Source: Minisyncoccota bacterium (lineage in GTDB: Bacteria; Patescibacteriota; Minisyncoccia; Phycocordibacterales; Phycocordibacteraceae). From it: DNA of 64,000 nucleotides. Each line of letters starts with the position of its first letter. The stretch's first letter is position 1. The position numbers and the translations under genes are program-made. The DNA is taken from assembly GCA_022842945.1 (NCBI GenBank), contig JALHOO010000002.1:25030-89029 (forward strand). Reading direction: 5' to 3'. Below, piece by piece: positions 26,975 to 61,816 of this stretch. Below the pieces are notes generated by a model. It was not told the origin of the DNA and made no database searches. It saw only the letters and a program-made list of their open reading frames with translations.

Positions 26975-27037
26975 GACGTGCGCGGAGAACGAGATTTTGA
27001 TATGGTGCATTTTAGAACGCCTGAAAGGAGGTCAGCT

Positions 27038-27319
27038 ATGCTGATGAACGCGTTGCTCATTTTCGTCATATGGGGACCATGGGCCATCTGGGATTGGCGT
27101 CGGTGTGGAATATTTCCCTACCTCACCTGCATCTATATAGCGGCAATGGCATTCGGGGTTTGGAGCGCACTGAACGGTACTCCGGGCTTCGGCATCCCGT
27201 TTGCAGGAGGCGCCTACGGCCTCTATGCCGTCACTGGTGGCTTCTTCTGGTTCAGACACCAGGGAAACCCTGCCATCTCTCACATCACCCTCGACGAGGT
27301 GCTGGGCAAGTCCCACTGA
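27038..27319 (+). CDS. Small hypothetical membrane protein (93 aa)
   Basis: Three hydrophobic segments; SD AAAGGAGGT; TGaTATGGT promoter; downstream hairpin. Confidence 0.7.
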   Translation: MLMNALLIFVIWGPWAIWDWRRCGIFPYLTCIYIAAMAFGVWSALNGTPGFGIPFAGGAYGLYAVTGGFFWFRHQGNPAISHITLDEVLGKSH

Positions 27320-27325
27320 ACGAAG

Positions 27326-27353
27326 AACGGCGACTCCTCTCGGAGTCGCCGTT
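27326..27353. terminator. Terminator between the small ORF and ftsH
   Basis: AACGGCGACTCC-tctc-GGAGTCGCCGTT. Confidence 0.75.
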
Positions 27354-27368
27354 TTCCTTTTGCGTGCC

Positions 27369-29300
27369 CTAGATCGACACGTCTTCCTCTTCCTTCTTCT
27401 TTGGTGTAATGCCGTTTGCAATAAGGATAGTTTCAAACTCCTCACGCTCAAGCGTCTCCACCTCAGTAAGACGGTCTGCAATCGCGTCCAGTGCCTTGCG
27501 GTTCTCTTCGAGCACCTGGCGTGCGCGAGTCTTGCCTTCGTCTATGATGCGGGCAACTTCTGCATCAATCTTTGCCGCTATATCCTGCGAGTATGTAGCG
27601 TCGCCATATGCACGGTCTCCCGCGTACGCAACAGGCCCGAGTACGTCACTCATGCCGTAACGAGACACCATGTCGCGCGCGAGGGCTGCGATAACCGCAA
27701 GATCGTTTGAGGGGCCCGTTGTAAGGTCGCCGTAAATCATCTCCTCTGCTACGTATCCGCCAAGCGTAGTAGCGATGTCGTCGAGGAAGGTCTTCCGGGA
27801 GTGCATGCGCTTGTCGTCAAACGGAAGCTTGAGGGTGTAGCCTGCAGCGCGTCCGCGACTGATAATCGAGATCTTGTGAATCGGGTCTGAGTGCTCAAGT
27901 ACGGAGCCCACGAGTGCGTGTCCTGCCTCGTGATACGCGGTAAGGCGCTTCTCCTTCTTTCCAAGCAGATGGCTCTTTCGTTCCGGACCGAGCATAACCT
28001 TCTCAATAGAGCGCACGAGATCGTACTGCGTAATCTCCTTGCGGTTCTCGCGGGCAGCCAAGATTGCTCCCTCGTTCATGAGCGAATAGAGCTCGGCTCC
28101 AGAGAAGCCTGGAGTGCGCTCCGCGATAACCTCAAGGTTAACGTCAGGACCAAACGGCTTCTTGCGTGCGTGCACCGTAAGAATCTCAAGACGATCTTTT
28201 CGGTCTGGGAGGTCGATAGTTACACGACGGTCGAAGCGTCCTGGGCGAAGAAGTGCCGGGTCAAGGACGTCAGGACGGTTGGTTGCCGCCATAACGATAA
28301 CCTTCTCAGTCGGATCAAATCCGTCCATCTCAACGAGGATCTGGTTAAGCGTCTGCTCGCGTTCGTCGTTCCCTCCTCCCACACCCGTACCACGCACGCG
28401 CCCAACGGCATCAATCTCGTCGATGAAGATGATGGACGGCGATGTCTTCTTCGCAAGAAGGAAGAGATCGCGTACACGTGACGCTCCCACACCCACAAAC
28501 ATCTCAACGAACTCAGAGCCTGAGATGGAGAAGAATGGTACGCCCGCTTCTCCCGCAACGGCGCGCGCAAGAAGAGTCTTTCCCGTTCCTGGTGCACCCA
28601 TAAGAAGGATTCCCTTTGGAATACGTGCACCGATATCAAGAAACTTCTTCGGGTTCTTCAAGAAGTCCACAATCTCAAGAAGCTCTTCCTTGGCTTCCTT
28701 GGCACCAGCAACGTCAGAGAAGAGTACACGCTGGGAGGTGTCCGCAGGATCAATCATGCGGGCCTTGGACTGGCCGAATGAGAATGCCTGCATGCCGGAC
28801 CCGCGCACCTGGCGCGTAAGGAACCAGAAGAGTACGCCCAGGAAGAGTATCGGGAGAAGAATAGGTGCAAGGCTCAAGAACCAATACTTGAATCCAGACT
28901 CGCTCTCAACCGTTACGTTAACGGCAGTGAGCTGTTCAGGGGTAACACCATATGCAGCGAGCGTCTCTGGAAGCGATGCCTCTGGATCTTTCATTGCCTC
29001 GCGCTCGGTGCCGTCCGCGTACGCGAGCACGAGACCGTTGCCCTCGATATGGATAGACGAGATAACTCCTGCCCTCACGTCAGCAGCAACCTGGGAAAGA
29101 GACACAGGCTCTTCCTTGTCTCCTTGGTTGGTTATAAGCGAGTAGCCACTCGTGAGGATAATAAGGATAAGGACAGTTGAGATGAGATTCGCCATGAATC
29201 CGCCACCTCCCGGGAGAAAGCCTCCCTTCCCTACCTGCTTCTTGTCTGTCTTCTTTGGGCCGGACTTCTCTGACCCGGCTGGTTTCTTTTTTGGTGCCAT
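27369..29300 (-). CDS. ftsH: ATP-dependent zinc metalloprotease FtsH
   Basis: Two TMs, [35 protein letters not shown]. Confidence 0.97.
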
Positions 29301-29383
29301 AATCTCTCGATTATACGTCAGAGCAAGACGAAGTGCGACGGTAGAGGCGTTTTAGGTAAAAGCCTGGTACCCTTTATATATCC

Positions 29384-29830
29384 ATGACGACACTTATAGA
29401 GAACAAAAAAGCACGCCTTAGGTTTGAGGTGCTTGAGACCTTCCAAGCAGGTCTTGAGCTCCACGGATACGAGGTTAAATCTATCCGCGCGAAGCTCGGC
29501 AGTTTTGAAGGTTCCCGCGTTATTGTGCGCGGCGGCGAAGCCTTTATTGTTGGCATGACGATACCTCCCTTCCAGATTGCGAACGCACCGAAGACCTATG
29601 ATCCGGAGCGTCCGCGCAGACTGCTTCTGAAGCGCTCCGAGATAGTCGAACTCCTCGAAGCAGAAGCGAAGAAAGGATTGACACTAGTACCATTAGAGAT
29701 GTATAATGCGGGGAGATACCTGAAGGTGCGAGTAGCTATTGTCCGCGGAAAAGGCAAAGCGGATAAGCGCGAAGATATGAAGCGCTTAGAAGCCAAGAAA
29801 GAAGCGGATAGAGCCATGCGCCAGAAATAG
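29384..29830 (+). CDS. smpB: SsrA-binding protein
   Basis: NKKA, AGLELHGYEVKSIR, YDPERPRRLLL, GKGKADKRE. Confidence 0.95.
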   Translation: MTTLIENKKARLRFEVLETFQAGLELHGYEVKSIRAKLGSFEGSRVIVRGGEAFIVGMTIPPFQIANAPKTYDPERPRRLLLKRSEIVELLEAEAKKGLTLVPLEMYNAGRYLKVRVAIVRGKGKADKREDMKRLEAKKEADRAMRQK

Positions 29831-46734: not shown

Positions 46735-47112
46735 TTATACGACTTCAGGTGCGATAGACGCAATGTTCTGCCATCCGCGCTCAACAAGGTCGCGAGGAAC
46801 GGGTCCGAATACACGGTTACCCTTTGGTCCCATCTCCTTACCCTGCTTCTCGATGAGAACAACTGCGTTGTCATCAAAACGTACGTAGATACCTGACGCG
46901 CGGCGGAATGCCTTACGCTGGCGAACCACAACGGCCTTGAAGATATCCTTCTTCTTAACGGCCTTGCGGGGCTCCGCAGACTGGATGGATACGATAACCA
47001 CGTCCCCAATCTCTGCATAGCGGCGCTTTGATCCTCCGAGCACCTTGAACACACGGGCGATCCTTCCGCCTGAGTTGTCTGTGACCGTTACGATTGACTG
47101 GGGCTGTACCAT
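46735..47112 (-). CDS. rplN: 50S ribosomal protein uL14
   Basis: DNSG, RFDDNAVV, RVFGPV, APEV. Confidence 0.97.
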   Translation of the reverse strand: MVQPQSIVTVTDNSGGRIARVFKVLGGSKRRYAEIGDVVIVSIQSAEPRKAVKKKDIFKAVVVRQRKAFRRASGIYVRFDDNAVVLIEKQGKEMGPKGNRVFGPVPRDLVERGWQNIASIAPEVV

Positions 47113-47122
47113 AAATAAGAGA

Positions 47123-47371
47123 TTACTTTACGAGCGTGAATGACTTACGCTTCGACATCGGCGCGCATCCAACAATCGTTACCTGGTCCCCCACCTTAGC
47201 AGTGTTGCCCTCGTCGTGTACGAGGAACTTCTTGGTGCGGGTCTGGTACTTCTTGTACTTTGGGTGCTTCACGTACCGAGAGACGGCAACGGTGATTGTG
47301 TCCGTCATGGCCGTCTTAACGACGGTTCCCTTGAAGGACTGGGGCTTAGTTGTTGGTGTAGGTGTTTCCAT
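47123..47371 (-). CDS. rpsQ: 30S ribosomal protein uS17
   Basis: HPKYKK, VHDEGN, GDQV, PMSKRK. Confidence 0.96.
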   Translation of the reverse strand: METPTPTTKPQSFKGTVVKTAMTDTITVAVSRYVKHPKYKKYQTRTKKFLVHDEGNTAKVGDQVTIVGCAPMSKRKSFTLVK

Positions 47372-47376
47372 AATAC

Positions 47377-47580
47377 TTATGCGGTTGGGGCGTTCTTGCG
47401 TGCGGTCTGTTCGGTAAGAATGCGAGCGATGTCCTTGCGGGCCTTTCCAGCTAGGCTTGCGTCCTTAACGCGTCCTCCCGCTGCAGAGAAACGTAGGGTG
47501 CGAAGCTCTTCGCGCTTCTCTCCGAGCATCTTTACGAGGTCCTCGCTCTTTGCGTCCTTGAATGAAGTTTTCTTAGCCAT
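47377..47580 (-). CDS. rpmC: 50S ribosomal protein uL29
   Basis: EELRTLRF, RKDIARILT; operon position. Confidence 0.93.
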   Translation of the reverse strand: MAKKTSFKDAKSEDLVKMLGEKREELRTLRFSAAGGRVKDASLAGKARKDIARILTEQTARKNAPTA

Positions 47581-47583
47581 ACA

Positions 47584-48003
47584 TTAACGGGTTATGACCG
47601 TAGTCTTAAGCGGAAGCTTCGATCCTGCGCGGCGCATAGCGTCGCGAGCCTTCGCATCATCAATACCATCGAGCTCGAAGAGGATGCGTCCTGGACGAAC
47701 CTCGAACACAAAGTGCTTCGGATCTCCCTTACCCTTACCCATGCCCACCTCAGCTGGCTTGTTCGTGATAGGACGATCCGGGAAGATGCGGATCCAGAGC
47801 TTACCTCCCTTTCCCGTTGCGCGGGAGAGTACCTTACGAGCGGCCTCAATCTGGTTTGAGGTTACGCGAGACGGCGTAGTAGCACGAAGGCCGTACGAAC
47901 CGAACGACACGGTGATACCGCGAGTATCAGGACGTGCAAGACGCTCCGGGGACTTACGTCCGGTCTGCCACTTGCGGTGCTTAACTTTCTTAGGGAATAG
48001 CAT
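47584..48003 (-). CDS. rplP: 50S ribosomal protein uL16
   Basis: QIEAAR, WIRIFPD, MGKGKG. Confidence 0.97.
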   Translation of the reverse strand: MLFPKKVKHRKWQTGRKSPERLARPDTRGITVSFGSYGLRATTPSRVTSNQIEAARKVLSRATGKGGKLWIRIFPDRPITNKPAEVGMGKGKGDPKHFVFEVRPGRILFELDGIDDAKARDAMRRAGSKLPLKTTVITR

Positions 48004-48014
48004 AGTACTAAATG

Positions 48015-48734
48015 TTAGCGGCGAGGACCGTTAGACGACGTAGACGGGCGCTCAGACGCTGGACGAGTTCCGCTCTCAGCGTTGAAGGTCTCGCCGAGGT
48101 AGATCCAAACCTTGATACCAAGGAGACCGTACGGAAGAAGAGCCTCTACGTGTGCGTAATCAATGTTTGCACGGAAAGTCTGAAGCGGGATACGGCCACG
48201 CTTGATCTGCTCAGTGCGGCTCATGTCAGCACCGCCAAGACGTCCAGAAAGGACGATGCGAACACCCACAACCTCGCGAACTGACATAACCTTCTCAACG
48301 GTCTGCTTAAGGACACGGCGGAACGGCATGCGCTTCTCGAGTCCCTCAGCAACCATGTACCCAACAACAGAGGCCGAAGTCTCAGGCTGGCGGATCTCCA
48401 TGATGTCGAGCTTAACGGCGCGCTTGGCACCTGTTGCCTTCGAGTTAATGAGGGTGGTTATCTCGTTGCGGAGTTTGGTTGCGTTCTCTCCAGAGCGACC
48501 GATAACAATACCGGGACGTGCCGTGTGGAGGATAACGCGCACCTCGCCCTGTGAGCGCTCAATCTCAAGGTCTGCGATGTGCATGCTCTTTGCACGCTTC
48601 TTGAAGTAGCCACGGATGGCCGCGTCCACCGCGATGTTCTCGCGGTACGACTTCTTGTCGCCAGCAAACCAGCGACTCTTCCAGTCACGGATGATGCCAA
48701 GGCGATGTGCGTACGGATGGACGGTGTGAGTCAT
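48015..48734 (-). CDS. rpsC: 30S ribosomal protein uS3
   Basis: RPGIVIG, GRLGGADMSRTE, PLQTFRANIDY. Confidence 0.97.
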   Translation of the reverse strand: MTHTVHPYAHRLGIIRDWKSRWFAGDKKSYRENIAVDAAIRGYFKKRAKSMHIADLEIERSQGEVRVILHTARPGIVIGRSGENATKLRNEITTLINSKATGAKRAVKLDIMEIRQPETSASVVGYMVAEGLEKRMPFRRVLKQTVEKVMSVREVVGVRIVLSGRLGGADMSRTEQIKRGRIPLQTFRANIDYAHVEALLPYGLLGIKVWIYLGETFNAESGTRPASERPSTSSNGPRR

Positions 48735-48739
48735 GGTAA

Positions 48740-49132
48740 TTACTTAGTGTCAGATGAAAGACGTACGAAAACCTGTGAACGGCGGCGGCGAATAGGTGCT
48801 GAACGACCCATAGCACGTGGCATAGCGCGCACAATCATGCCTGCTGAGTCTACGCGGATCTCAGCAACCTTAAGAGTAGCCATGTCCTCGCCGCGAGCCT
48901 TTGCCGTAGCTGCCGCTGACTCAATGAGCTTCTTGATAGGAAGAGCTGCGCGCTTTGGGAGGAATGAGAGTGCTGCAACGGCCTCGGACACCTTCTTGCC
49001 CTTGATCATCTCCGTAACGAGACGCACCTTGCGGGGCGACTGGTTGTACGTGTCGATAGACGCGCGGATAGCCTTCTTTGCTTCCTCCTTGCGAAGTGCA
49101 GCTGGCTGCTTGTGTGTTCCGGTAGAGGCCAT
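48740..49132 (-). CDS. rplV: 50S ribosomal protein uL22
   Basis: QSPRKVRLV, PRAMGR. Confidence 0.96.
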   Translation of the reverse strand: MASTGTHKQPAALRKEEAKKAIRASIDTYNQSPRKVRLVTEMIKGKKVSEAVAALSFLPKRAALPIKKLIESAAATAKARGEDMATLKVAEIRVDSAGMIVRAMPRAMGRSAPIRRRRSQVFVRLSSDTK

Positions 49133-49134
49133 GA

Positions 49135-49482
49135 TTATTTCTTCTTAGGTGCTGCAGGGGCAGCCTTAGCAGCCTTAGCCGCTGCAATCTCAGCCTGCTG
49201 CTTCTTCTGCTCAAGCTGCTTCTGCATCTTTCCTCCGTGACGGATGAACTTCTTCGTTGGGGAGAACTCTCCAAGGCGGTGACCTACCATTTCCTCAGTA
49301 ACGAGGACGTCTACGTGTGTCTTCCCGTTATGGACACCGAATGTGAATCCGATGAACTCAGGGGAGATCTGGCTGTTGCGTGCCCACGTCTTAATAGCCG
49401 GCGTAGAAGACGGCTTCTTATCCTGAACCTTCTTCAGGAGATTTACATCAACGTATGGGCCTTTTTTAAGGGAGCGGGACAT
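49135..49482 (-). CDS. rpsS: 30S ribosomal protein uS19
   Basis: [23 protein letters not shown]. Confidence 0.97.
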
Positions 49483-49520
49483 AGATAGACAATGGAAAGC
49501 CCGCCAGGCGGGATAGATAG

Positions 49521-49549
49521 AATCTATAGGAAACGAGGGGAAGTGTCAA
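49521..49549 (-). promoter_or_regulatory. Sigma70 promoter for the rpsS...rplE segment
   Basis: TTGACA-17-TAGATT. Confidence 0.8.
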
Positions 49550-49607
49550 ATTAAGGGCTCGCGTGCTAGGGTTCTGCCAGACGTTCAACACAAACCAGGA
49601 GGCTCCC

Positions 49608-50042
49608 GTGGAACGTGCAGTAGTTGCCGTATGGTTCAACCACAGTACTCCCGGGAGATTTCCGGGTGAAAGGGGCGTATACAACACCTATGTCCTTAGG
49701 ATCGAAGATCCTGCAGGTGAACTTCAAAACCTGACAGAGAAATACCTGAAATCTTGGGACCGGTTACATGAAAGACCCGAAAGCTGGTGGCGCAGGGTCA
49801 GATGCAAGGGTCTGAAGCAGAAGGCGCTGAAGCGTGCTCTTGCCTGTCTCAAGGCGAGACCACGGCCGAATGTCACTGTCAGCGTTTCTAGCAGCGATGA
49901 ACACGTTCCTTCTTCCCCTTGGCCCTACATTGGCAAGCTTCGGGAAATGATTCTTTTTGGAGGAACGTCTCAATTCTGGATCCTAAAGGATCAGCAACTC
50001 AAGGACTTCAGAGAGGCCGTTAAGGCCGACAAACAGGACTGA
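49608..50042 (+). CDS. Orphan hypothetical protein (144 aa)
   Basis: SD CAGGAGG before GTG; TGcTAGGGT promoter; hairpin after the stop. Confidence 0.65.
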   Translation: MERAVVAVWFNHSTPGRFPGERGVYNTYVLRIEDPAGELQNLTEKYLKSWDRLHERPESWWRRVRCKGLKQKALKRALACLKARPRPNVTVSVSSSDEHVPSSPWPYIGKLREMILFGGTSQFWILKDQQLKDFREAVKADKQD

Positions 50043-50051
50043 AAGAGTTCA

Positions 50052-50083
50052 GGGGCTCCGCAACCGCGGAGCCCTTTCTTTTT
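50052..50083 (+). terminator. Intrinsic terminator
   Basis: GGGCTCCGC-aacc-GCGGAGCCC followed by TTTCTTTTT. Confidence 0.8.
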
Positions 50084-50101
50084 GCGCGCTATACTATTCC
50101 C

Positions 50102-50920
50102 ATGATTGACCTCACCACCCCGAACGCTCGCCGCATGGAGATCCTGGGCGTTGTTATCCTCGTTAGCATCGTTCTCATCTTTACCCTCTGGTACATGGCC
50201 ACACACGAGGCTCCACGGCCCTACACAGGCGCCCCTGAGGTTGCTACAACGACGCCTGAGGCACTTCCCCCGCAAATAGTTGAGGAACACGGCCAGTACT
50301 ACGATATAGAGGCCTCGTACCCAGGAGAAACCCTCATTAAAGCCTCTGCAGGCGCTGAGGCTGACATTGAAGCTGTAGCACTCATGGAGGACTTCGTAGA
50401 GGACACTATCAAGGATTTCAAGACCCAAGGACGTTTCGATACCCTCACCCCTGAGGACATCCAAATAATGGGTCTCTCAGACACCCGCAAGGAGAGCATC
50501 CAGATAACGTACGAAGAGAAAGAAGGACCCAAGACGGTGTCGTACGTATATACCCTCTTCGTTGATACCCTTGGCGCGCACCCCAACGCCTTCTACCGCA
50601 CCTTCACCTTCGATCGCACAACCGGCGAAGAGCTCAAGATAGAAGATCTCTTCATTCCCCGTGCCGCGTACCTTACGCGCCTTTCCGCTATCGCTGAGTT
50701 CGAGCTCTCAAAGTCCCTCGGAGATTTCGTTGATGTAGACTATATCCAACAAGGCACTGCTCCTGAGTCTCAGAACTTCCAGAGCTACAGTATCGAAGGC
50801 AACAACCTCGTACTTATATTCCCACCGTACCAGGTGGCACCCTATGCAGCAGGCACGCAGACAGTGTCCATTCCGCTCTCGCAGCTATCAGAGATTCTGA
50901 AGCCTGAGTACCAGCCATAG
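50102..50920 (+). CDS. DUF4163/DUF3298 (RsiV/PdaC-like) membrane-anchored protein
   Basis: TM; GAHPN, TFD..G.EL..EDLF, FPPYQVAPYAAG; TATACT 6 nt before the ATG. Confidence 0.88.
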   Translation: MIDLTTPNARRMEILGVVILVSIVLIFTLWYMATHEAPRPYTGAPEVATTTPEALPPQIVEEHGQYYDIEASYPGETLIKASAGAEADIEAVALMEDFVEDTIKDFKTQGRFDTLTPEDIQIMGLSDTRKESIQITYEEKEGPKTVSYVYTLFVDTLGAHPNAFYRTFTFDRTTGEELKIEDLFIPRAAYLTRLSAIAEFELSKSLGDFVDVDYIQQGTAPESQNFQSYSIEGNNLVLIFPPYQVAPYAAGTQTVSIPLSQLSEILKPEYQP

Positions 50921-50923
50921 AAC

Positions 50924-50945
50924 AGAGGTCTTTTCGAAGACCTCT
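50924..50945. terminator. Terminator between convergent genes
   Basis: AGAGGTCTT-ttcg-AAGACCTCT. Confidence 0.7.
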
Positions 50946-50948
50946 TTC

Positions 50949-51242
50949 TTACGCCTTCTCTTCAAGCTCTGCTATGCGCCGTTCATGACCGAGCACCGTA
51001 ACCGAGTCCGTATCAATCGCGGCAAGCGCTGAAGTAAGATCGTCCTGTACGTCAGCAATGGAAGCTTTAATCTTCTCTGTATTGCGTTCAAGGGTGCTCA
51101 GGCGAACCTCCACAGAATCGACCCGCTGGTTAACCGTTAAGACCGCATCTTTCACACCGTCTATCTTCTGATTGGTTAGCGCCAGCACCTCAAGCACATC
51201 GTGAAGCGTTGGTTCGAGCTCTGAAGAAGCATCCTTAGACAT
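50949..51242 (-). CDS. Small coiled-coil hypothetical protein
   Basis: Continuous heptads ending HERRIAELE; TATTAT 6 nt before the ATG. Confidence 0.75.
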   Translation of the reverse strand: MSKDASSELEPTLHDVLEVLALTNQKIDGVKDAVLTVNQRVDSVEVRLSTLERNTEKIKASIADVQDDLTSALAAIDTDSVTVLGHERRIAELEEKA

Positions 51243-51274
51243 GGACTAATAATACACCCATCCGGAGGACAAGA

Positions 51275-51302
51275 AGAAAACCCCGCTTTCGCGGGGCTTT
51301 CT
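51275..51302 (-). terminator. Terminator after rplB
   Basis: CCCCGC-tttc-GCGGGG with a U-tract on the minus strand. Confidence 0.75.
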
Positions 51303-51309
51303 CTTGTCT

Positions 51310-52155
51310 TTAGCGCTTCTTTCCAACCTTTCGGCGAGAAACAATAAACTTGTTGGAGTACTTCTTCGGTGTACGGGTCTTCTGTCCCTTTCCGGTTGGC
51401 TTACCCCACATGCTCTTCGCACGACGGAGACCACGTCCCTGCTTACCCTCACCACCTCCATGAGGATGGTCTACCGGGTTCATAGCCGTACCACGAACAG
51501 TTGGGCGGATACCCTTCCATCGGCTCTTTCCAGCCTTTCCGTAGTTCTGGAGGCGCTGCTCCTCGTTACCTACAGCACCAATAGATGCCCATGCAGACTC
51601 GATAACCTTACGGATCTCAGATGATGGCATCTTGATCTGTGCGTATCCAGCGTCATGCGCCACAATCTCAGCGTAGTTTCCAGCAGAGCGTGCAATGCGT
51701 GCACCTGCTCCTGGACGAAGCTCAACGTTGTAGATGAAGGTTCCAGAAGGAATCTTTCCAAGAGGAAGACGGTTACCAGTCTTAATTGGTGCCTTCTCAG
51801 AGACGATGAATGTGTCCCCTACCTTCATGTCCTTAGGAACCGTTACGTAGCGACGCTCTCCGTCTGCGAACACCACGAGTGCGATGAACGCGGTGCGGTA
51901 TGGGTCGTACTCGATAGTCTCAACACGTGCTGGGATGTCGTGCTTGTTGTACTTAAAGTCGACATCACGAAGACGCTTCTTGTGACCTCCACCCTGATGA
52001 CGCGTAGTGATACGTCCCGCATTGTTGCGACCTGCCTGGTTCTTCTTTGAAGAAAGAAGCGCCTTGTGCGGCTTAACGCCCGGAGTCAGTACGCCACGGT
52101 ACGTGACGACGGTCATGCTGCGACGAGATGCGGATGTTGGCTTGAATGACTTCAT
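51310..52155 (-). CDS. rplB: 50S ribosomal protein uL2
   Basis: GRNNAGRIT, IEYDP, RPTVRG.AMNPVDHPHGGGEG. Confidence 0.98.
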   Translation of the reverse strand: MKSFKPTSASRRSMTVVTYRGVLTPGVKPHKALLSSKKNQAGRNNAGRITTRHQGGGHKKRLRDVDFKYNKHDIPARVETIEYDPYRTAFIALVVFADGERRYVTVPKDMKVGDTFIVSEKAPIKTGNRLPLGKIPSGTFIYNVELRPGAGARIARSAGNYAEIVAHDAGYAQIKMPSSEIRKVIESAWASIGAVGNEEQRLQNYGKAGKSRWKGIRPTVRGTAMNPVDHPHGGGEGKQGRGLRRAKSMWGKPTGKGQKTRTPKKYSNKFIVSRRKVGKKR

Positions 52156-52165
52156 ACTAATCAGG

Positions 52166-52543
52166 TTATGCGAAGGTGATGGTATCACCTGCCTTTAGGT
52201 ACACGTATGCCTTGTGGCGACGTGCGCGAGTTCCTACACCGCGGCGAGTGCGGAGCGCCACCTTCTTTGCCGGAAGGTTAACCATACGGACCTTCATAGG
52301 TGTCACCTTGTACGCGTTGATGATCGCGTTCGCCACATCAATCTTGGTTGCTGAAGGAGATACCTCGAAGACGTATACGCCGTTCTCAGAAGAGATAAGT
52401 GCCTTCTCAGAGAACCATGGGCGCTTCAAGACGTTCGCAAGACGCGCGTCGTCAGCTGGAAGAATCCCGCGACCCCAGTTACGGGTCTCAGACTTAGCCT
52501 TCTTGGCCTTAGTTGTCTTCTTGTCGTTAGAGAAAAGTGCCAT
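52166..52543 (-). CDS. rplW: 50S ribosomal protein uL23
   Basis: SEKA, YVFEV..ATK, KAYVYL. Confidence 0.94.
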   Translation of the reverse strand: MALFSNDKKTTKAKKAKSETRNWGRGILPADDARLANVLKRPWFSEKALISSENGVYVFEVSPSATKIDVANAIINAYKVTPMKVRMVNLPAKKVALRTRRGVGTRARRHKAYVYLKAGDTITFA

Positions 52544-52553
52544 ACAAGTAGTG

Positions 52554-53321
52554 TTATGCCTTCTTTGTTAGGCGGCTAGAGAGGATCGGAAGCGCCTCAG
52601 CAGGATTCTCGATAACAAGGAACTTCTTGTTTACGAGATCAACTGGGTTCAAGTTGCGCACCTCCTCAAGCGTAAGGCTTCCGATGTTGCGGAAGGACTT
52701 CTCGCTCGTTGAGTCCTTCTTTGCGAAGGCAAAGACAGCTGCGTTCTTGCGCTTGGTTGCGAGCTCAGACACGTTAGCGCCCTTTGCAACAGCAACGAGC
52801 ATCGCCTTAGCGTCTGCAGTCTTTGGCGTTGCGAATGCGAAGGAATCTACAAAGAGAACCTGTCCGTCACGATGCTTGCGCGAGAGCACCACAGCGAGCG
52901 CTGCAGCACGCATCTTGCGGTTGATCTTAACGGAGTAGTCCTTCTCAGCGCGTGGACCATGAGTCACACCTCCACCCTTCCAAATAGGAGAGCGGGTCGA
53001 TCCGTGACGAGCGCGTCCCGTTCCCTTCTGCTTCCACGGCTTCTTGCCTCCTCCGGATACTTCTCCACGGAACTTGGTGTGTGCCGTTGTTGGGCGAGCG
53101 TTTGCCTGCATACCAACCACCACCTGGTGTACGAGGTCTGAGTTCCACGCGACGTTGAAGAGCTCTGCAGGAAGCGTTACCGATCCAGCGTTCTCTCCCT
53201 TGGCGTTCCAAATAGTTGCCTCTAGAGACACTTCCTTCTTAGCGCTCTTAGGCACGATTACAGCCGCCTCCTTCTTTACAGGAGCCTTCTTTGCGACAGT
53301 GTTCTTTGCAGGGGTAGCCAT
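52554..53321 (-). CDS. rplD: 50S ribosomal protein uL4
   Basis: GGGKKPWKQKGTGRARHGS.RSP. Confidence 0.97.
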   Translation of the reverse strand: MATPAKNTVAKKAPVKKEAAVIVPKSAKKEVSLEATIWNAKGENAGSVTLPAELFNVAWNSDLVHQVVVGMQANARPTTAHTKFRGEVSGGGKKPWKQKGTGRARHGSTRSPIWKGGGVTHGPRAEKDYSVKINRKMRAAALAVVLSRKHRDGQVLFVDSFAFATPKTADAKAMLVAVAKGANVSELATKRKNAAVFAFAKKDSTSEKSFRNIGSLTLEEVRNLNPVDLVNKKFLVIENPAEALPILSSRLTKKA

Positions 53322-53332
53322 AGTACTAAAAA

Positions 53333-53947
53333 TTACATCGAACGAATCTCGACGAGTGCACCAGGAGCTCCTGGAATAGCACCCGAGATGATCATCTCGC
53401 CGGTAGCAGCGTTTACCTTAAGCACCTTAAGGTTCTGTACGGTTACGCGGTCTGAACCCATGCGGCCGGCCATCTTCATGCCCTTAGCCACGCGACCTCC
53501 AGCGCGACCTCCACCACCAATCGAACCCGCCTCACGCTCAGAGTGCTTCTGACCGTGCGAGCGGCGGCCTCCATGGAACCCATGGCGCTTCACCACTCCT
53601 GCGAAGCCCTTACCCTTAGAGGTTGAGGCAACTACAACCACGTCGCCCTCTGCGAAGATGTCCGCAGAAATCTCAGCACCAACCGTAAGGTCAGTTGAGT
53701 CAACGCGGAACTCCTTCATGGCCTTGTATGCCTTGCCCTTGGTGTGGCCGAGCTGAGCCTTATTTACGCGAGCTTCCTTCTGATCCTGGAACGCGACCTG
53801 TACGGCCGAGTACTTATCAGCCCCGTCCGCTGTCTTTACCTGGGTAACGACAACCGGTCCCGCGTTAACCACGGTACCGGCGAACACCTCACCCTTGTCA
53901 TTGAAGACCTGGGTCATGCGTCCTTTGCGGGCGAGAATGAATTTCAT
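53333..53947 (-). CDS. rplC: 50S ribosomal protein uL3
   Basis: MTQVF, SKGKGFAGVVKRHGF, MAGRMG. Confidence 0.97.
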   Translation of the reverse strand: MKFILARKGRMTQVFNDKGEVFAGTVVNAGPVVVTQVKTADGADKYSAVQVAFQDQKEARVNKAQLGHTKGKAYKAMKEFRVDSTDLTVGAEISADIFAEGDVVVVASTSKGKGFAGVVKRHGFHGGRRSHGQKHSEREAGSIGGGGRAGGRVAKGMKMAGRMGSDRVTVQNLKVLKVNAATGEMIISGAIPGAPGALVEIRSM

Positions 53948-54074
53948 AGACAAAAGAAAATCGCGCTTCAACAGCGCGTCGGCCCACAAAGGGGCTTTCG
54001 GCTGGAGGTCCGGGGTCCGAAGACGCCGTACATAGCAACTCAGGGACTATACCTGATTCTATTCCGGGATGCAA
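53948..54074 (-). promoter_or_regulatory. rplC promoter and structured ~90-nt leader
   Basis: TTGCAT-17-TATAGT (54046-54074); GC hairpins such as CGCGCT-gttga-AGCGCG followed by a U-rich stretch before the ATG; no SD. Confidence 0.65.
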
Positions 54075-54126
54075 ATCCTGTGCTAAAGTGCCCTCACCAT
54101 AGCTTCGTATGGAAGGGAGATCTTTT

Positions 54127-54279
54127 ATGAGTGTCCAGGAAACTCAACACCAAGCCGAAACAACGGAAAGCCCTGAGCCGCCCGGATTCAACGAAACCGG
54201 ACCGGCGAGCTACTACGCTCCGGAAGGATTCGGCGACCCTGCCGAGCATTCCTCCGGGTATGCAGACGGCCGCATCTAG
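54127..54279 (+). CDS. Small acidic orphan protein (50 aa, not in the ORF track)
   Basis: MSVQETQHQAETTESPEPPGFNETGPASYYAPEGFGDPAEHSSGYADGRI; SD-like AAGGGAG, TGcTAAAGT promoter, terminator at 54286. Confidence 0.55.
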   Translation: MSVQETQHQAETTESPEPPGFNETGPASYYAPEGFGDPAEHSSGYADGRI

Positions 54280-54285
54280 GAAGCC

Positions 54286-54316
54286 GGGCCCGGCGCAAAT
54301 GCGTGCCGGGCCCTTT
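54286..54316 (+). terminator. Terminator after the small ORF
   Basis: GGGCCCGGCGC..GTGCCGGGCCC followed by TTT. Confidence 0.7.
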
Positions 54317-54349
54317 CGATACAGAAAAGCGCCCCGCAAGGCGGGACGC

Positions 54350-54625
54350 TCATTTCTTCCTCCGCTTCCGATCTGCGGGAGCATCATCAGGAGCGGTCGT
54401 GAATCTTCCTCCGACCTTTTCTCCGGCGATAACAATCCCCTTCTCGTAGCGATATCTCCTCGCCTTCTTGTTCCAGAGCTTGTCCTTGAGCGGAGCCAGC
54501 CTGGTGACTCCCGTTTCCGGAGGTCGTGCGTCATGCATAGCCTTCAGGACTACTCCGACTGCGGCATTGCGTCTGTAGACGCGGAGAGTGCTCTCAAGAG
54601 GCTTGGTCTTAATCCCGTCGACCAT
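54350..54625 (-). CDS. Small basic orphan protein (91 aa)
   Basis: Lys/Arg-rich; GAAAGG upstream; TATGCT promoter; hairpin at 54324-54350 after the stop. Confidence 0.55.
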   Translation of the reverse strand: MVDGIKTKPLESTLRVYRRNAAVGVVLKAMHDARPPETGVTRLAPLKDKLWNKKARRYRYEKGIVIAGEKVGGRFTTAPDDAPADRKRRKK

Positions 54626-54679
54626 GATTCGAACCTTTCAAACAACGAACAGAAGAAGAGCATACACCCGTATACACAA

Positions 54680-54711
54680 AAGCAAAACCGCCCTCTCGGG
54701 CGGTTTTGCTT
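54680..54711 (-). terminator. Terminator after rpsJ
   Basis: AAGCAAAACCGCCC-tctc-GGGCGGTTTTGCTT. Confidence 0.85.
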
Positions 54712-54723
54712 CTCCCTTTCGGG

Positions 54724-55080
54724 TTAGACCATCTTCACATCAATCGTCACGCCTGAAGGCAGGGTGAGGTTCGTGAGAGCCTCGATAACCTTAGGGTTTG
54801 GACTGAGGATGTCGATCAAACGCTTGTGGATGCGCATTTCGAACTGCTCACGTGCGTCCTTGTGGACGAAGGTTGAGCGGTTCACGGTCCAGCGCTTGAT
54901 TTCGGTTGGAAGAGGCACAGGTCCTACGGTCTTCGCATCAAAGCGAGACGCGGTGTCCATGATCTGCTTCACCGAGAGGTCCAGGATCTTGTGCTCGTAG
55001 GCACGAACGCGGATCCGGAGCTTCGGCTCGCTTGGTGCCTCGGCAACCTTCTTGACGGTCTTCTTCGCGGTTGTAGCCAT
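54724..55080 (-). CDS. rpsJ: 30S ribosomal protein uS10 (NusE)
   Basis: GPVPLPT, KDAREQFEMRIHKRLIDI. Confidence 0.97.
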   Translation of the reverse strand: MATTAKKTVKKVAEAPSEPKLRIRVRAYEHKILDLSVKQIMDTASRFDAKTVGPVPLPTEIKRWTVNRSTFVHKDAREQFEMRIHKRLIDILSPNPKVIEALTNLTLPSGVTIDVKMV

Positions 55081-55102
55081 ACGAGTAAGAAGTTAAAGCG
55101 GA

Positions 55103-56308
55103 TTAGGCGACGATCTTTGTGACCACACCAGCACCCACCGTCTTGCCACCCTCGCGAACCGAGAAGCGGAAGTTGTCCTCAAGCGCGATTGGCGCTGTGA
55201 GCTTTACCTTGAAGGTAACGGTGTCGCCTGGCATAACCATCTCCTTTCCTTCTGGAAGCGTAACCTCGCCCGTAACGTCCGTTGTACGAACGTAGAACTG
55301 TGGCTTGTAACCAGAGAAGAATGGGGTGTGGCGGCCTCCCTCGTCCTTGGAGAGGATGTACACCTCAGCCTCGAACTCAGTGTGTGGCTTTACGGAGCCG
55401 AGCTTCGCAAGCACCTGTCCGCGATGGACGTCCTCCTTCTTCGTACCGCGAAGAAGGATACCAGCGTTGTCGCCAGCCTGTCCCTCCTGGAGCTGCTTGT
55501 TGAACATCTCGATACCGGTGACGGTTGTCTTGACCGTGTCCTTAAGACCAACGATCTCGATTTCCTCGCCCACCTTGATAACACCGCGCTCGATGCGTCC
55601 GGTGATAACGGTACCGCGTCCTTCAATCGAGAAGATGTCCTCGATAGGCATGAGGAACGGCTTGTCGAGCTCGCGCTCAGGCTGTGGGAAGTACGTGTCC
55701 ATAGTGTCCACGAGCTCCTTAACCTTAAGTGCCCACTCGTCGTTCGCGTCAGTTGCGTTAAGCGCGCGAAGTCCAGAACCGCGAATGATCGGGGTAGCTG
55801 CACCGTCGTAGCCCTGCTTGGTAAGAAGCTCGCGCATCTCTTCCTCAACGAGGTCGAGCATGTCTACGTCCTCCACCATGTCCGTCTTGTTGAGGAACAC
55901 GATGAGACGTGGAACACCCACCTGCTTTGCAAGGAGAATGTGCTCACGAGTCTGTGGCATCGCACCGTCTGTTGCCGCAACCACGAGTACTGCGCCGTCC
56001 ATCTGGGCAGCTCCCGTAATCATGTTCTTGATGTAGTCGGCGTGGCCTGGAGCGTCGATGTGCGCGTAGTGGCGGTTCGGGCTCTCGTACTCAGAGTGGT
56101 GAAGGGCGATGGTAATACCACGAGCCTTCTCCTCAGGAGCGTTGTCGATGTTGTCGACGTTCTCCGCGCGGGCCTTGTAGCCTGCAGCGGTGTTGAGGTT
56201 GAGCACATTGAGAATACCGGCGGTGAGCGTGGTCTTTCCGTGGTCCACGTGACCGATGGTACCCACGTTCATGTGCGGCTTGCTTCGGTCGAATGCTTCT
56301 GCTGCCAT
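55103..56308 (-). CDS. tuf: Elongation factor Tu
   Basis: [40 protein letters not shown]. Confidence 0.99.
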
Positions 56309-56509
56309 ACGATTGGTAGGTTATTGGTAGCTAAAAATAAATTTTTGCCGCCGCGCCTGCCTGTTTGAAGACAGGCGACCAAGGCGAAGGTCGGACTAAC
56401 CCGCGCAACGCCTTTCAGCCATCCCGACCTCCGTAAGGAGAGGAACATTGAAAAGAGCGCCGTATTTCGCGTTACTTCTTAAACTACCGGAGCTGGGGCC
56501 CTCGGTCAA
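56309..56509 (-). promoter_or_regulatory. tuf-rpsJ promoter and ~165-nt structured leader
   Basis: TTGACC-17-TAGTTT (56481-56509); GAGGTCGG/CCGACCTT and GCCTGT/ACAGGC stems; boxA-like GCTCTTTTCAA. Confidence 0.65.
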
Positions 56510-56609
56510 GCGCAAAAGATAGAGGCGACCCTAAGGCCGCCTCCTTTTCCTCCCCCAGAGCCGCTTCAAGGGAGAGCCCACCAGGTCCCTGTTCTCATAG
56601 AGGAGAGCA

Positions 56610-56876
56610 CTAACGACCAGTATGGCCACCACGGTGCGTAGGGGCCATGTGGCGAGTGTCGAACCGAGTGACACGGATTTGCCCGTATTCTGAGCGTTCT
56701 TGGTCATATTCCCCTCCCAGGGTTACCCGTTCATGATAGTCAAAACCGTTCGGATACAAAGACATGAGCCCTGCATCCACGGCGCCGTACCAGGATTCTT
56801 CAGTAGCTACCGCAGGCAGCATATCCAAAGACAGCATAGTGCTCCCAAGAAGGAGATTCTTTCTGGATGTTCTCAT
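56610..56876 (-). CDS. Small orphan protein resembling the N-terminus of an OmpA-type outer-membrane protein (possible remnant)
   Basis: Signal-like LLLGSTMLS..PAVA, then EESWYGAVDAGLM; hairpin at 56522-56543 downstream. Confidence 0.45.
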   Translation of the reverse strand: MRTSRKNLLLGSTMLSLDMLPAVATEESWYGAVDAGLMSLYPNGFDYHERVTLGGEYDQERSEYGQIRVTRFDTRHMAPTHRGGHTGR

Positions 56877-56944
56877 TACAATGCCCTTCGTGTGCGTCTA
56901 CTTGCACGATACGTGACTAACAAAAAACAGCAAACCAGTAGGAG

Positions 56945-57583
56945 CTACTGGAACTTAAAGGACGAAACGATGCGATCGTATACCGCTTCCTGGCCCATGG
57001 CGACGGCAATAGTGTAGACCTGCATATCATGCAGGAATACGCTTGCGCGGGTCTCATTCTCCGCACCTGCCGGATAGTTAGCGACGCGAATCTGTGTCGC
57101 CTTCTCCCCTCCTATCGTGCGGGAAGATTCAGTGATGCGACCTGCTCGATACTCAGTACGAAGCGCATCGAGTGTCTTATCAAGGCTCACATTCACATTC
57201 TCCTTCTCGAAGACTACGGTTGCCAAACAGTCCCCCGTTGAATCCTTAAGCTTCATGCAGATGGTTGTCTGTGGGTCTACAGACGTTGCTGAGGCAATCC
57301 AGTTGTCTGGATACGAGAAGCTAAAGCCGAACTCTGAGTTCTCATAAGTCTGATATGTCTGCGACGCAGGTACTTCCTCTCCAGGAGCGGCCGGGGCTCC
57401 AGGCTCAACTGGCTGGGGACGAATAACCGCGTCAGACGCGCTCTGAGACGCATCACGAAGCGCCGGTACTGAGTCGAGGTACCCATGGTCTGGTGTGCGA
57501 CTCCACCAGTACAAATACGCATATGCGCCCAGGGCAACTACCACGAGCACAGCGAGCATTATCTTCGTTCTTTTGGTGATCAT
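56945..57583 (-). CDS. Membrane-anchored PsbP-like surface protein
   Basis: TM; YQTYENSEFGFSFSYPDNW ... YDRIVSSFKF. Confidence 0.78.
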   Translation of the reverse strand: MITKRTKIMLAVLVVVALGAYAYLYWWSRTPDHGYLDSVPALRDASQSASDAVIRPQPVEPGAPAAPGEEVPASQTYQTYENSEFGFSFSYPDNWIASATSVDPQTTICMKLKDSTGDCLATVVFEKENVNVSLDKTLDALRTEYRAGRITESSRTIGGEKATQIRVANYPAGAENETRASVFLHDMQVYTIAVAMGQEAVYDRIVSSFKFQ

Positions 57584-57649
57584 ATATACGAACCGTAGCA
57601 CAAGAGCCGCCCCAGACGGGACGGCTCTGTGTACAGCACAGCGAATGAA

Positions 57650-59797
<2,148 letters not shown>

Positions 59798-59841
59798 TTT
59801 GTAAGAGATATAAAGTAAAAAGCCGCCTGGGCGTTACCTAC

Positions 59842-59870
59842 AAGATACGTTTTAGAGACCCAAAAGGCAA
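59842..59870 (-). promoter_or_regulatory. fusA promoter
   Basis: TTGCCT-17-TATCTT. Confidence 0.6.
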
Positions 59871-59872
59871 GA

Positions 59873-59900
59873 AAAGGGGTCGCGAGCATGCGACCCCTTT
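59873..59900 (-). terminator. Terminator after the KGG gene
   Basis: AAAGGGGTCGC-gagcat-GCGACCCCTTT. Confidence 0.8.
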
Positions 59901-59917
59901 CACATAGTTCCCGAGAC

Positions 59918-60178
59918 CTACTTCATCGGATGGATGCCGAAGTCGTCCTGGGGCCGAACTGGCTCCGCAGCCGGCTTCTTCCTCCTGGACCCGTGGCTGT
60001 TTTCGCCGCCCTTCCTGCCGGCCTTAGCCGCAAGGGCTCGATCCTGGCTGAACGACCGCTTGTCGCCTGGAACCGATGCGCCGCCCTTGCGAGCGAGCTC
60101 GCGCTGGCGCTCAGGGTCCATCGACGCGAACCCGCGCCGGCTTGTTCCAGGAATCTTCTCTTCAGGCGCGTTGGCCAT
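59918..60178 (-). CDS. KGG-repeat general stress protein (GsiB/YciG-like)
   Basis: RGFASMDPERQRELARKGG..RSFSQDRALAAKAGRKGG; SD GAGGAG; TATACT promoter. Confidence 0.92.
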   Translation of the reverse strand: MANAPEEKIPGTSRRGFASMDPERQRELARKGGASVPGDKRSFSQDRALAAKAGRKGGENSHGSRRKKPAAEPVRPQDDFGIHPMK

Positions 60179-60272
60179 GACCTTCTCCTCCTCTATCCAG
60201 CTTGAGTGCTGGTCTGTGGCCGAGTATACGCCTCAAAGATTAGAGGTAAAGAATAGGGTGCGTCTCTTATGT

Positions 60273-60806
60273 CTACACTTTCTCAAAGTGCTGATAATCC
60301 TTGTAGTTCTCCCTATCACCCAACCATGTCCACCCTCGCTCCTTGAAGAGGGTGACGTTATCGCTATCCGCAAAGAGCGTACCGGGTACTGAAGAATCAT
60401 GTACAGCATGTGGCGGATAAGTATTCCCATTCCGTGCGTGATACGGGTTCTGCAGTGGATTTATATCTATTGCTCTGCCTAACGAATGGTTAGATAGGAC
60501 ATCAGAGTCAACAATGCACCGGTAGTTAAAGGCGGAGGTGTTGTTGTGAGCCATAGAAGCTTCGTCATCCCAGTTATACGCTGCCACGGGAACCATCTTA
60601 TGTATCGGGAACTTCCGTATATAGAGCTCCTCGAACAAAAGACCTACTTCTTTAGCAAGATTGGTATGGATAACGAGCTGTCCCATGCACTTCTCTCCGT
60701 CAAAAGAAACATAGGGCACATCAATAAGCGCGAGCATACCGCGTATCTCAGACGGGATACTGAGTCCGCTAAGCGCTTCATCAAGGGAGGAGAATACCGT
60801 TTCCAT
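60273..60806 (-). CDS. M15-family metallopeptidase (Peptidase_M15_4)
   Basis: NNTSAFNYR, SNHSLGRAIDINPLQNPY, GWTWLG..DYQHFE. Confidence 0.9.
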   Translation of the reverse strand: METVFSSLDEALSGLSIPSEIRGMLALIDVPYVSFDGEKCMGQLVIHTNLAKEVGLLFEELYIRKFPIHKMVPVAAYNWDDEASMAHNNTSAFNYRCIVDSDVLSNHSLGRAIDINPLQNPYHARNGNTYPPHAVHDSSVPGTLFADSDNVTLFKERGWTWLGDRENYKDYQHFEKV

Positions 60807-60865
60807 ATAGATGCTCAATAGATCGAGATAACTATACAGACAAGAAACCAATTTCCTATAAAAAG

Positions 60866-60900
60866 TTTGGACCCGGTCGCTCATGGCGATCGGGTCCAAA
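60866..60900 (-). terminator. Hairpin after the NlpC/P60 gene
   Basis: TTTGGACCCGGTCGC-tcatg-GCGATCGGGTCCAAA. Confidence 0.75.
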
Positions 60901-60901
60901 G

Positions 60902-61738
60902 TCATGTAGGGCGATAGTCGTGCAATCGTCGTACGATGGTTATCTGGCCGTTTCCGTTTCTCTGCTGGTCGAAGATAACCTGCGCCAACGGCTGAACGAT
61001 AGCCCTGCCGTAAGGTTCAGCGACGGTAACGTTGAAGCAGTTCTTACTGTCCACCATAACCACCACGTGGCGTCCTTTGAGTTCCGTCCAGAACAGCAGG
61101 TCGCCTCGGCGAAGGTCCGAGTAGTCAACGGCAACCGTTACCGGTTTCCCCAACATCTTCGACTGCGGCATGGAATCGCGCGGACACGGGATACCTGCGG
61201 CGATACAGGCAGATTGAACAGCTGAAGAACAGTCGAACAGACTGCTTCTCCATCCCCAGCCGTACTCGACGCCCTGTTCTGCATCTCCAAGCTTTAGAAG
61301 TTCAGATACGAAGTCAGGAGCCTTGTATCCGATCGGCACGAGCCGGCGCGCAAACACCCACCCCAAACCATGTACTTCGCACATGGGTCCTTCAGGGGTT
61401 TTAACCGTCCGAACTACCGTTACAAGAGAGTTGAGGTAGAGCGTACCGGTGATGCGCTTCTTGAAGTCCGATTGATTGTAGATCCCCGCGGTACGTTCAC
61501 TGACTCGATGTGTCGCGGCTTCTGACAGGCCTTGTATAACATCGCTCGTCTTCATGTACCCGCTGTACTCATCGAGATCCGTAACGACCTGTAGCCAATC
61601 TTGACTGGTCTTCACGATGGCAAGGGACTCTCCGAAGAGCGCCTGCGTCTCAAGCGCCGAATCGATTGAAGGGTCGCGGTAGATGCCAGTGAAGCTGACA
61701 CCGACCCGACCTCTTATCTGTGTAGGTGTCTTGAACAT
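60902..61738 (-). CDS. SH3 plus NlpC/P60 cysteine peptidase (YkfC/dipeptidyl-peptidase VI-like)
   Basis: ETQALFGE, YGWG..DCSS, PRDS..Q, GDLLFW..HV; no signal peptide. Confidence 0.88.
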   Translation of the reverse strand: MFKTPTQIRGRVGVSFTGIYRDPSIDSALETQALFGESLAIVKTSQDWLQVVTDLDEYSGYMKTSDVIQGLSEAATHRVSERTAGIYNQSDFKKRITGTLYLNSLVTVVRTVKTPEGPMCEVHGLGWVFARRLVPIGYKAPDFVSELLKLGDAEQGVEYGWGWRSSLFDCSSAVQSACIAAGIPCPRDSMPQSKMLGKPVTVAVDYSDLRRGDLLFWTELKGRHVVVMVDSKNCFNVTVAEPYGRAIVQPLAQVIFDQQRNGNGQITIVRRLHDYRPT

Positions 61739-61816
61739 GGCGTGTTCCTTCTTTGTGACCACAATACGACATTACGTCGTTCCGCTATTGAGCCTACACC
61801 TCTACCTAAAAGAAGA

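Follow-up and report, generated by a model that had tools for sequence, protein, structure and literature searches.

In Bacteroidia the anti-Shine–Dalgarno (anti-SD) sequence of 16S rRNA is intact but occluded, and rpsU is led by a Shine–Dalgarno (SD) sequence. Phage morons, a second point of comparison, are stand-alone units with promoter, SD and terminator, and include phage-borne copies of host-function genes. Loss of the anti-SD motif (CCTCCT) has been published for about half of the Parcubacteria (Tsurumaki et al. 2022, PMC9297842), and the accessible part of that paper reports an overlap with the absence of uL1. The present analysis concerns a stretch of 64,000 nucleotides (hereafter the window; positions 25,030 to 89,029 of contig JALHOO010000002.1, assembly GCA_022842945.1) and the genome that holds it, here called G000, other G numbers designating genomes of relatives. 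The organism belongs to the Patescibacteria (Paceibacterota), and the Bacteroidia frame invoked in an earlier note is inapplicable. The anti-SD motif is missing from G000, in which about 50 short SD-led genes stand among SD-less ones; comparison with relatives argues that this SD-led feature is real and under selection.

G000 comprises 694 kb in four contigs, is 99.5% complete, possesses type IV pilins and has a split str-S10-spc ribosomal gene cluster. One 16S gene was found, the tail of which, after helix 45, reads CAUAUCC where the consensus is CACCUCC. A search of 40 relatives gave 16S matches in 23 and readable tails in 21, none of them with CCUCC; together with two further relatives whose tails also lack the motif, it is missing from 23/23 readable tails. 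Inspection of the 16S 3′ tail for CCUCC, which the earlier note had proposed, was thus negative for G000 and for all 23 relatives. Within the window, in-register GGAG or GAGG was seen at none of 27 core starts (ribosomal-protein genes, tuf, fusA, secY, adk and map), in agreement with the previous observation that ribosomal-protein, tuf and fusA starts have no SD. Genome-wide, with 741 genes from a self-trained gene caller, a TAnnnT box peaks 12 nt upstream of the start in 129 genes (leaderless type); rpsU (encoding a divergent bS21; weak match) has a start of this type and no SD. The mean pairing of core-like genes to the canonical tail is weaker than that at internal ATGs.

Outside native-like genes, 84 SD-led ATG open reading frames (ORFs) were counted genome-wide, as compared with 28–41 in six shifted controls; a looser mask gave 96 against 48–59. 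By these counts some 50 SD-led genes are real, chance accounting for about half of the entries in lists of this kind. The ORFs are short (median 106 aa), and a strong hairpin lies 3′ of 57/68 of them versus 361/713 other ORFs. A native-type extended −10 is present in 75 of 151 SD-led leaders from G000 and G116, as against 24% of shuffles, and is located 30–60 nt upstream in 64 of those 75. The layout described earlier (own −10, leader, SD, short ORF and hairpin) is therefore borne out for the class by the hairpin and extended −10 counts; likewise, the frequency of SDs, which was to be compared between core genes and cassettes, is unequal (0/27 core starts in the window, about 50 SD-led genes genome-wide). 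Contigs of runs X2 and X3, from the same study as the possible source, run across four cassette regions and on into the core genes at their sides, with 0–1 differences, so that the cassettes are not misassemblies.

A paired control is provided by the KGG family, which occurs in 19/150 genus genomes and is split into two subfamilies, KGG-A, to which the copy in the window belongs, and KGG-B, consisting of native paralogues. KGG-A is SD-led in 10/10 cases and KGG-B in 0/13; G064, G113 and G041 carry both. The named homologues of KGG-A are mostly from Brevundimonas/Caulobacteraceae, and two Brevundimonas phages also have it. KGG-A and caulobacterial-type copies of the cell-cycle regulator GcrA are found together in 7/10 genomes where 0.8 would be expected, the related genomes among them not being independent.

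The same families, defined by homology, could be used to examine the fit of the SD to the two kinds of tail. A pairing energy of −5 kcal/mol or better against the canonical tail was reached by 10/10 KGG-A, 19/19 GcrA and 12/12 outer-membrane barrel leaders, versus 0/13 KGG-B, 35/326 core genes and 389/1500 internal ATGs, while only 7 of the 41 KGG-A, GcrA and barrel leaders reach this value with their own tail. Purines occupy the three positions preceding the GG core in 35, 38 and 40 of the 41 leaders, respectively. These purines match the canonical UUU (which accepts A or G) and not the own AAU, which would need U, and the spacing to the start is fixed, as in an SD. Where several starts were possible, SD energy helped the choice; this is avoided by the GcrA starts set by protein motif alone, 15/15 of which are of SD type (chance, 26%), and 8/10 KGG-A rows had a single candidate. 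The counts leave out G139, a near copy of G126. From the 25 GcrA matches, three fragments, a copy lacking a start and two weak matches were set aside, and from the 15 barrel matches, G047 (short and weak) as well as G125 and G146, for which no start could be settled (those located gave −4.1 and −1.9, respectively).

The SD also persists over long divergence. In 20 relatives SD-led ORFs, mostly different ones, are found at the operon junctions that carry cassettes in G000, and G116 displays a similar SD excess (93 versus 47–62 in controls, over 691 kb), G035 a weak one (12 versus 4–8). Conservation of the SD in orthologues, another check named in the earlier note, was found in the families tested: it is kept at 25–77% protein identity, with silent sites near saturation (dS at least 1).

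The GcrA gene itself, present in 20/150 genus genomes, has its nearest named relatives in the Caulobacteraceae, at up to 78–82% identity. A single origin of symbiont GcrA was rejected (p-AU 4e-5) in quick trees, the test being run without four long rows and one duplicate; on these trees GcrA is a protein captured repeatedly from Caulobacterales. The caulobacterial-type copies have dN of 0.12–0.43 at dS from about 1 to saturated, and 18/18 symbiont proteins retain the zinc-finger motif by which sigma70 is bound. According to the accessible part of PMC5887438, binding of GcrA requires the sigma70 non-conserved region, which is absent from the sigma70 of G000 and of 20/20 GcrA-bearing relatives. 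As for CcrM, a motif scan yielded only two other methyltransferases, and GANTC sites number 2613 against 2699 expected. Symbiont gcrA leaders resemble donor leaders no more than shuffles do (8.5 and 8.7, respectively, versus 13.9 between donors), and their SD style differs, with AAGG in 12/19 symbiont and 8/39 donor leaders; the SD was accordingly rebuilt, or kept, in symbiont DNA. Third-position GC of the G000 gene is 0.53, as compared with about 0.9 in Brevundimonas.

The SD-led barrel retains a signal peptide and a C-terminal Phe, and its model is all-beta with long strands. It was found in 14/150 genus genomes and in 10/400 genomes across the order, with only two close relatives among 927 candidates; a sequence search against solved structures gave no match. 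Order-wide, 10/10 barrel genes have purine-rich SD-type leaders (9/10 at −5 kcal/mol or better) amid mostly SD-less neighbours. Three of these genes come from genomes (G037, G200 and G518) in which UCC, too, is gone from the tail, although the SD class in tails of this kind is based on barrel genes and three small samples. BamA/Omp85 was found neither in G000 nor in 5/5 barrel-bearing relatives tested. Similarly, two SD-led ORFs of G000 encode a lipobox, and Lgt and LspA were not found in that genome. The neighbours of the SD-led GcrA, barrel and lipobox genes are native and syntenic with G116. Among other SD-led ORFs, a helix-turn-helix regulator (L082:2087-2467, −), 67% identical in G116 and SD-led there, presumably of alphaproteobacterial type, may be another host-directed regulator. 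L072:8334-8648 (−) has a weak cold-shock-domain match. L084:4395-4769 (+), without a family match, looks tautomerase-like, its start codon being followed by Pro.

Selection on an SD implies that something reads it, and with the cell's own 16S and CsrA excluded, the ribosome of a host offers the simplest joint account. Because the motif fits an ordinary bacterial ribosome and several of the products need diderm alphaproteobacterial machinery, the SD-led genes appear, on balance, to be written for translation by alphaproteobacterial host ribosomes, delivered either as transcripts or as cassettes. The narrower proposal that they form a host-addressed gene set exported as mRNA effectors, in which the SD came to serve as an unambiguous address once the cell had lost its anti-SD, is possible, if somewhat less probable than its converse; promoters of native type favour transcription within the symbiont and hence, more weakly, mRNA as cargo. 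We infer that the reader would be a host ribosome, the host a caulobacterial cell and the cargo mRNA rather than DNA. There would then be two gene classes, SD-less genes for the cell's own anti-SD-less ribosome and some 50 SD-led single-gene cassettes as host cargo. The latter would be transcribed from the symbiont's own promoters, enter an attached alphaproteobacterial cell (here probably Brevundimonas-like) and be translated by ribosomes that still have an anti-SD. A barrel or lipoprotein made in the host would enter the host's export or assembly path, GcrA would meet the host sigma70, and the cell-cycle regulator, outer-membrane barrels, lipoproteins and stress proteins together might reprogram the host. 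That mRNAs are tuned for host ribosomes had been offered as a speculation in the earlier note; it is now favoured by the fit between SD and tail, the missing partners and the sorting of paralogues.

It is tempting to guess that a type IV system serves as the conduit. A VirB4 cluster lies near dnaA in G000, its VirB4 scoring above the cut-off for NF045971, and a coupling-protein-like ATPase has TraD/VirD4-like matches far below cut-off. As judged from the accessible part of PMC12102498, such a system is widespread in Patescibacteria, mostly without relaxase and with a substrate that is unknown; in G000, one relaxase motif pattern was without match, a weak test for which no profile search was made.

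Several observations speak against translation by a host. Transfer and expression of the cassettes are proposals drawn from genome sequence, and to our knowledge there is no precedent for mRNA passing via a type IV system into a diderm. SD-led leaders share no export motif beyond weak 5-mer enrichments, N-terminal hydrophobic stretches are no commoner in SD-led ORFs (14/63) than in others (127/475), and 78 of the 100 SD candidates scanned, out of 131 listed, have neither a Pfam family nor a host link, about half of the candidates being expected to be chance or internal starts. Only 5/68 SD-led ORFs of G000 have matches in G116, versus 503/715 other ORFs. No SD excess was detected in 300 kb of G021 (26 versus 17–27 in controls), 140 kb of G027 (4 versus 2–7) or 120 kb of G032 (4 versus 4–12). 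The M15 gene and one other gene change class between G000 and G021, and of 17 resolved starts of the NlpC/P60 gene, 13 are SD-led, 2 leaderless and 2 neither; given such switches, some products can be made without an SD. In addition, dN is close to dS in 3/4 barrel pairs within the genus, the placement of the G000 and G144 GcrA among Brevundimonas rests on long branches, and G518 has CCUCC about 20 nt beyond the tail position, within a hairpin.

The strongest rival holds that the purine tract is recognised by the ribosome of the symbiont itself, whether through a ribosomal protein such as bS1 or bS21, the residual UCC, or a trans-acting RNA or protein, in which case the host-function proteins would be secreted. 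A bS1-type gene and a divergent bS21 gene are indeed present in G000, UCC is retained in the tails of the genus (13/13), two families without UCC gave no SD excess in the samples, and the NlpC/P60 and M15 genes alternate between SD-led and leaderless starts; moreover, type IV secretion of protein is established, and the Patescibacteria system mostly has no relaxase (PMC12102498, accessible part). However, the motif matches the canonical and not the own tail precisely at the positions where they differ, barrels are SD-led even where UCC is gone, and UCC is predicted to be paired in a small, weak hairpin over the tail in 15/15 UCC tails (−1.7 to −3.9 kcal/mol). The motif is also avoided by highly expressed core genes, and the sorting of KGG paralogues by donor would go unexplained. 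We regard a reader within the symbiont as improbable, though a serious contender.

Alternatively, the cargo may be DNA, the cassettes being transcribed as well as translated in the host or serving it after recombination, a possibility that is partly contained in delivery to a host as set out above. With its own −10, SD and terminator, every cassette is self-contained, and the accessible part of PMC12102498 ascribes a conjugative ancestry to the type IV system. Against this, the cassette promoters show the extended −10 characteristic of the symbiont itself, the cassettes are scattered within essential operons and the relaxase pattern mentioned above had no match, weak as that test is. DNA as cargo is, in our view, unlikely.

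Still less credit can be given to the idea that the SD is a neutral leftover of recent capture, which was the first alternative in the earlier note. Its premise of foreign origin holds for GcrA and KGG, which are alphaproteobacterial, donor gcrA genes have SDs, ComEC (present in G000) and pili permit uptake, and turnover is fast. Recency fails for the testable families, because silent sites approach saturation and dN stays much lower than dS, the leaders do not resemble those of donors and the SD persists, which contradicts a leftover in the seven families tested; the rebuilt leaders, the third-position GC of gcrA and the finding of no close relative outside the lineage for several families point the same way. 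Such an explanation may hold for young ORFs beyond these seven families. Finally, the presence of GGA in leaders and of a stress protein among the members makes only a very poor case for a repressor site of CsrA type or for an anti-SD that is conditionally hidden as in Bacteroidia (the regulon, read on anti-SD exposure, of the earlier note), since csrA was not found in G000, spacing to the start codon is fixed as in an SD, rpsU has no SD, and CCUCC is absent from the tail and within 120 nt in 23/23 loci as well as from the tail of G000.

To return to the cassettes of the window, presumed here to be addressed to a host, their coordinates are collected in the table.

Table. Features discussed in the text, with positions in the window (ext., extended)
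Feature	Position	Strand	Details
tRNA	26898..26974	+	directly 5′ of the 27038 cassette
SD-led cassette behind tRNA	26995..27355	+	ext. −10 about 27001; ORF 27038-27319 (93 aa, hydrophobic); hairpin 27324-27355
str-S10-spc ribosomal gene cluster	42518..62748	-	SD-less backbone
SD-led cassette between rplE and rpsN	45317..45760	-	ORF 45715-45353 (120 aa); hairpin 45346-45317
SD-led cassette between rpsS and rplB, opposite strand	49560..50076	+	ORF 49608-50042 (GTG, 144 aa); hairpin 50051-50076
SD-led cassette	54078..54313	+	ORF 54127-54279 (50 aa, acidic); hairpin 54286-54313
Cassette between rpsJ and rplC	54327..54670	-	ORF 54625-54350 (91 aa, basic; SD weak in G000); hairpin 54351-54327
Two overlapping candidate ORFs, fusA side to tuf	56521..56876	-	56707-56531 (58 aa), terminator 56544-56521; 56876-56610
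SD-led KGG general-stress-protein cassette	59872..60230	-	−10 60228-60223; ORF 60178-59918 (86 aa); hairpin 59901-59872; Pfam KGG
M15-family peptidase	60273..60806	-	no SD in G000; SD-led in G021
SH3-NlpC/P60 peptidase cassette between rpsG and fusA	60866..61775	-	ORF 61738-60902 (278 aa), weak SD; hairpin 60900-60866; Pfam
GcrA gene	outside window, G000 contig C3		SD-led
Outer-membrane barrel gene	outside window, G000 contig C3		SD-led; Pfam OMP_b-brl

Restart promoters ahead of rplC, rpsS and rpsN divide the str-S10-spc cluster into units. The cassettes lie at the borders of these units, as had been noticed before, and 27038 lies directly behind a tRNA. Of the eight cases previously put forward, five are strong, with SD energies against the canonical tail of −13.1 (27038, +), −11.8 (45715, −), −10.3 (49608, +, GTG start), −12.5 (60178, −) and −9.5 kcal/mol (54127, +), and all five have a TAnnnT box 33–50 nt upstream and a strong hairpin past the stop. 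Two more, 61738 (−6.2) and 54625 (−4.0), are weak in G000 and SD-led in 13/17 and 4/4 relatives, respectively. The eighth, 56876, is probably in the wrong frame: its energy is −5.0, no terminator stands at its stop, and the overlapping 56707 ORF is stronger (−10.7) and ends at a terminator; no homologue of 56876 was seen in a subset of relatives' loci.

Most of these genes are sparsely distributed. The 27038 ORF, without a Pfam match, has orthologues in 2/150 genus genomes, that of G021 (50% identity) with an almost identical leader and SD and that of G116 (30%) also with an SD. The 45715 protein has an invariant Pro after the start and a predicted beta-alpha-beta repeat; the order of elements in the model, the N-terminal Pro and an Atlas match below 0.9 (CHMI in 13% of one cluster, score 0.81) provide a lead towards a tautomerase-like product, and both of its orthologues among 150 genus genomes (33–35%) are SD-led. 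The junction of 49608 holds a homologue in G116 too (33%, SD-led), through which others were traced in G065 and G144. No homologue of 54127 was seen in a subset of relatives' loci, a genus-wide search not having been made. Orthologues of 54625 exist in 4/150 relatives, with dN 0.16 and dS 1.5 against G021. The NlpC/P60 gene is more widespread (18/150 relatives, 27–47% identity, 17/18 adjoining rpsG), and no signal peptide was seen in the ORF of the window.

In a strain about 96% alike (run X5, probably of DNA rather than RNA), the 49608 and NlpC/M15 cassettes are absent or replaced (49582-50077 and 60231-61813) and 45715 and most of KGG are kept. SD-less accessory genes also occur at the same junctions (50102-50920, +, and 56945-57559, −); DUF3298 recurs in 18/20 relative loci and a PsbP-like gene in 5, a stability well above that of the SD-led ORFs. 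The tRNA ahead of the 27038 cassette has the anticodon UAU and was called Ile; this anticodon is unusual in bacteria. Upstream of tuf lies a non-coding leader of about 170 nt (56309-56511, −), conserved and structured, with its own −35/−10 promoter. It has blastn matches in 15 relatives (69–93%) and a two-domain consensus fold with 4/32 pairs changed on both sides, gave no Rfam match at gathering score, and is a candidate cis-regulatory RNA. A group I intron match (RF00028, 3217-3448) is contained in 3170-3448 (−), beside what resembles the 3′ half of a tRNA, not called by ARAGORN. At the 16S loci, the linked tRNA has the anticodon GAU, and the remnant UCC (L001:2945-2965 and relatives) is followed 3–5 nt further on by GGA in 15/15 UCC tails. 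UUC(A) tails continue with (U)GAA or similar, suggestive of a small processing hairpin, although by energy they do not fold. A covarying hairpin in the tail, seen by eye, was not upheld, the fold being confined to the 15 UCC tails and missing from the 8 others.

These data bear on how Patescibacteria exploit their hosts, on the cargo of a relaxase-poor type IV system and on host identity. The SD-led set of an anti-SD-less genome supplies, from sequence only, a list of effector candidates and a host prediction (Caulobacteraceae, probably Brevundimonas); if the prediction is true, cargo phylogeny names the hosts of uncultured symbionts. If the cargo is host-translated mRNA, this would be gene expression from one bacterium to another, of which we found no description, and if instead the symbiont ribosome reads an SD without an anti-SD, a new initiation mechanism would be implied.

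Compared with the closest described systems, G000 resembles the anti-SD-less Parcubacteria in belonging to the same phylum and in having a 16S tail without CCTCCT; the accessible part of PMC9297842 deals with the rRNA loss and mentions neither an SD-led class nor its reader. As in Bacteroidia, most genes are SD-less and few SD-led, but there the anti-SD is intact and hidden, whereas in G000 it is lost, rpsU is SD-less and the SD-led genes are some 50 accessory cassettes. With phage morons the cassettes share their own promoter and terminator and the copies of host regulators and stress proteins; unlike morons, they are chromosomal, are set within ribosomal-protein operons and belong to a cell that has ribosomes itself. 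No phage genes were seen beside them, the flanks being core and syntenic with relatives, though no PHROG scan was made. The accessible part of the type IV system paper (PMC12102498) describes a VirB4 of monoderm conjugative type near dnaA, as in G000, and proposes no RNA or SD-led cargo. The zinc finger and contact motif of the Caulobacter GcrA-sigma70-CcrM module (PMC5887438, accessible part) are conserved in symbiont GcrA, while, unlike in Caulobacter, the symbiont sigma70 is without the non-conserved region and the motif scan revealed no CcrM-like ORF. Gene transfer into Patescibacteria is covered in PMC12455944, the accessible part of which includes neither an SD-led class nor host translation, and a literature search that left most subscription papers uncovered and supplements unread found no paper on either subject in Patescibacteria. 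The present analysis contributes a control by paired KGG subfamilies, a test of which tail the motif fits, barrels that are SD-led in cells whose tail has no UCC, the repeated capture of GcrA with its partners absent, and the prediction of a host.

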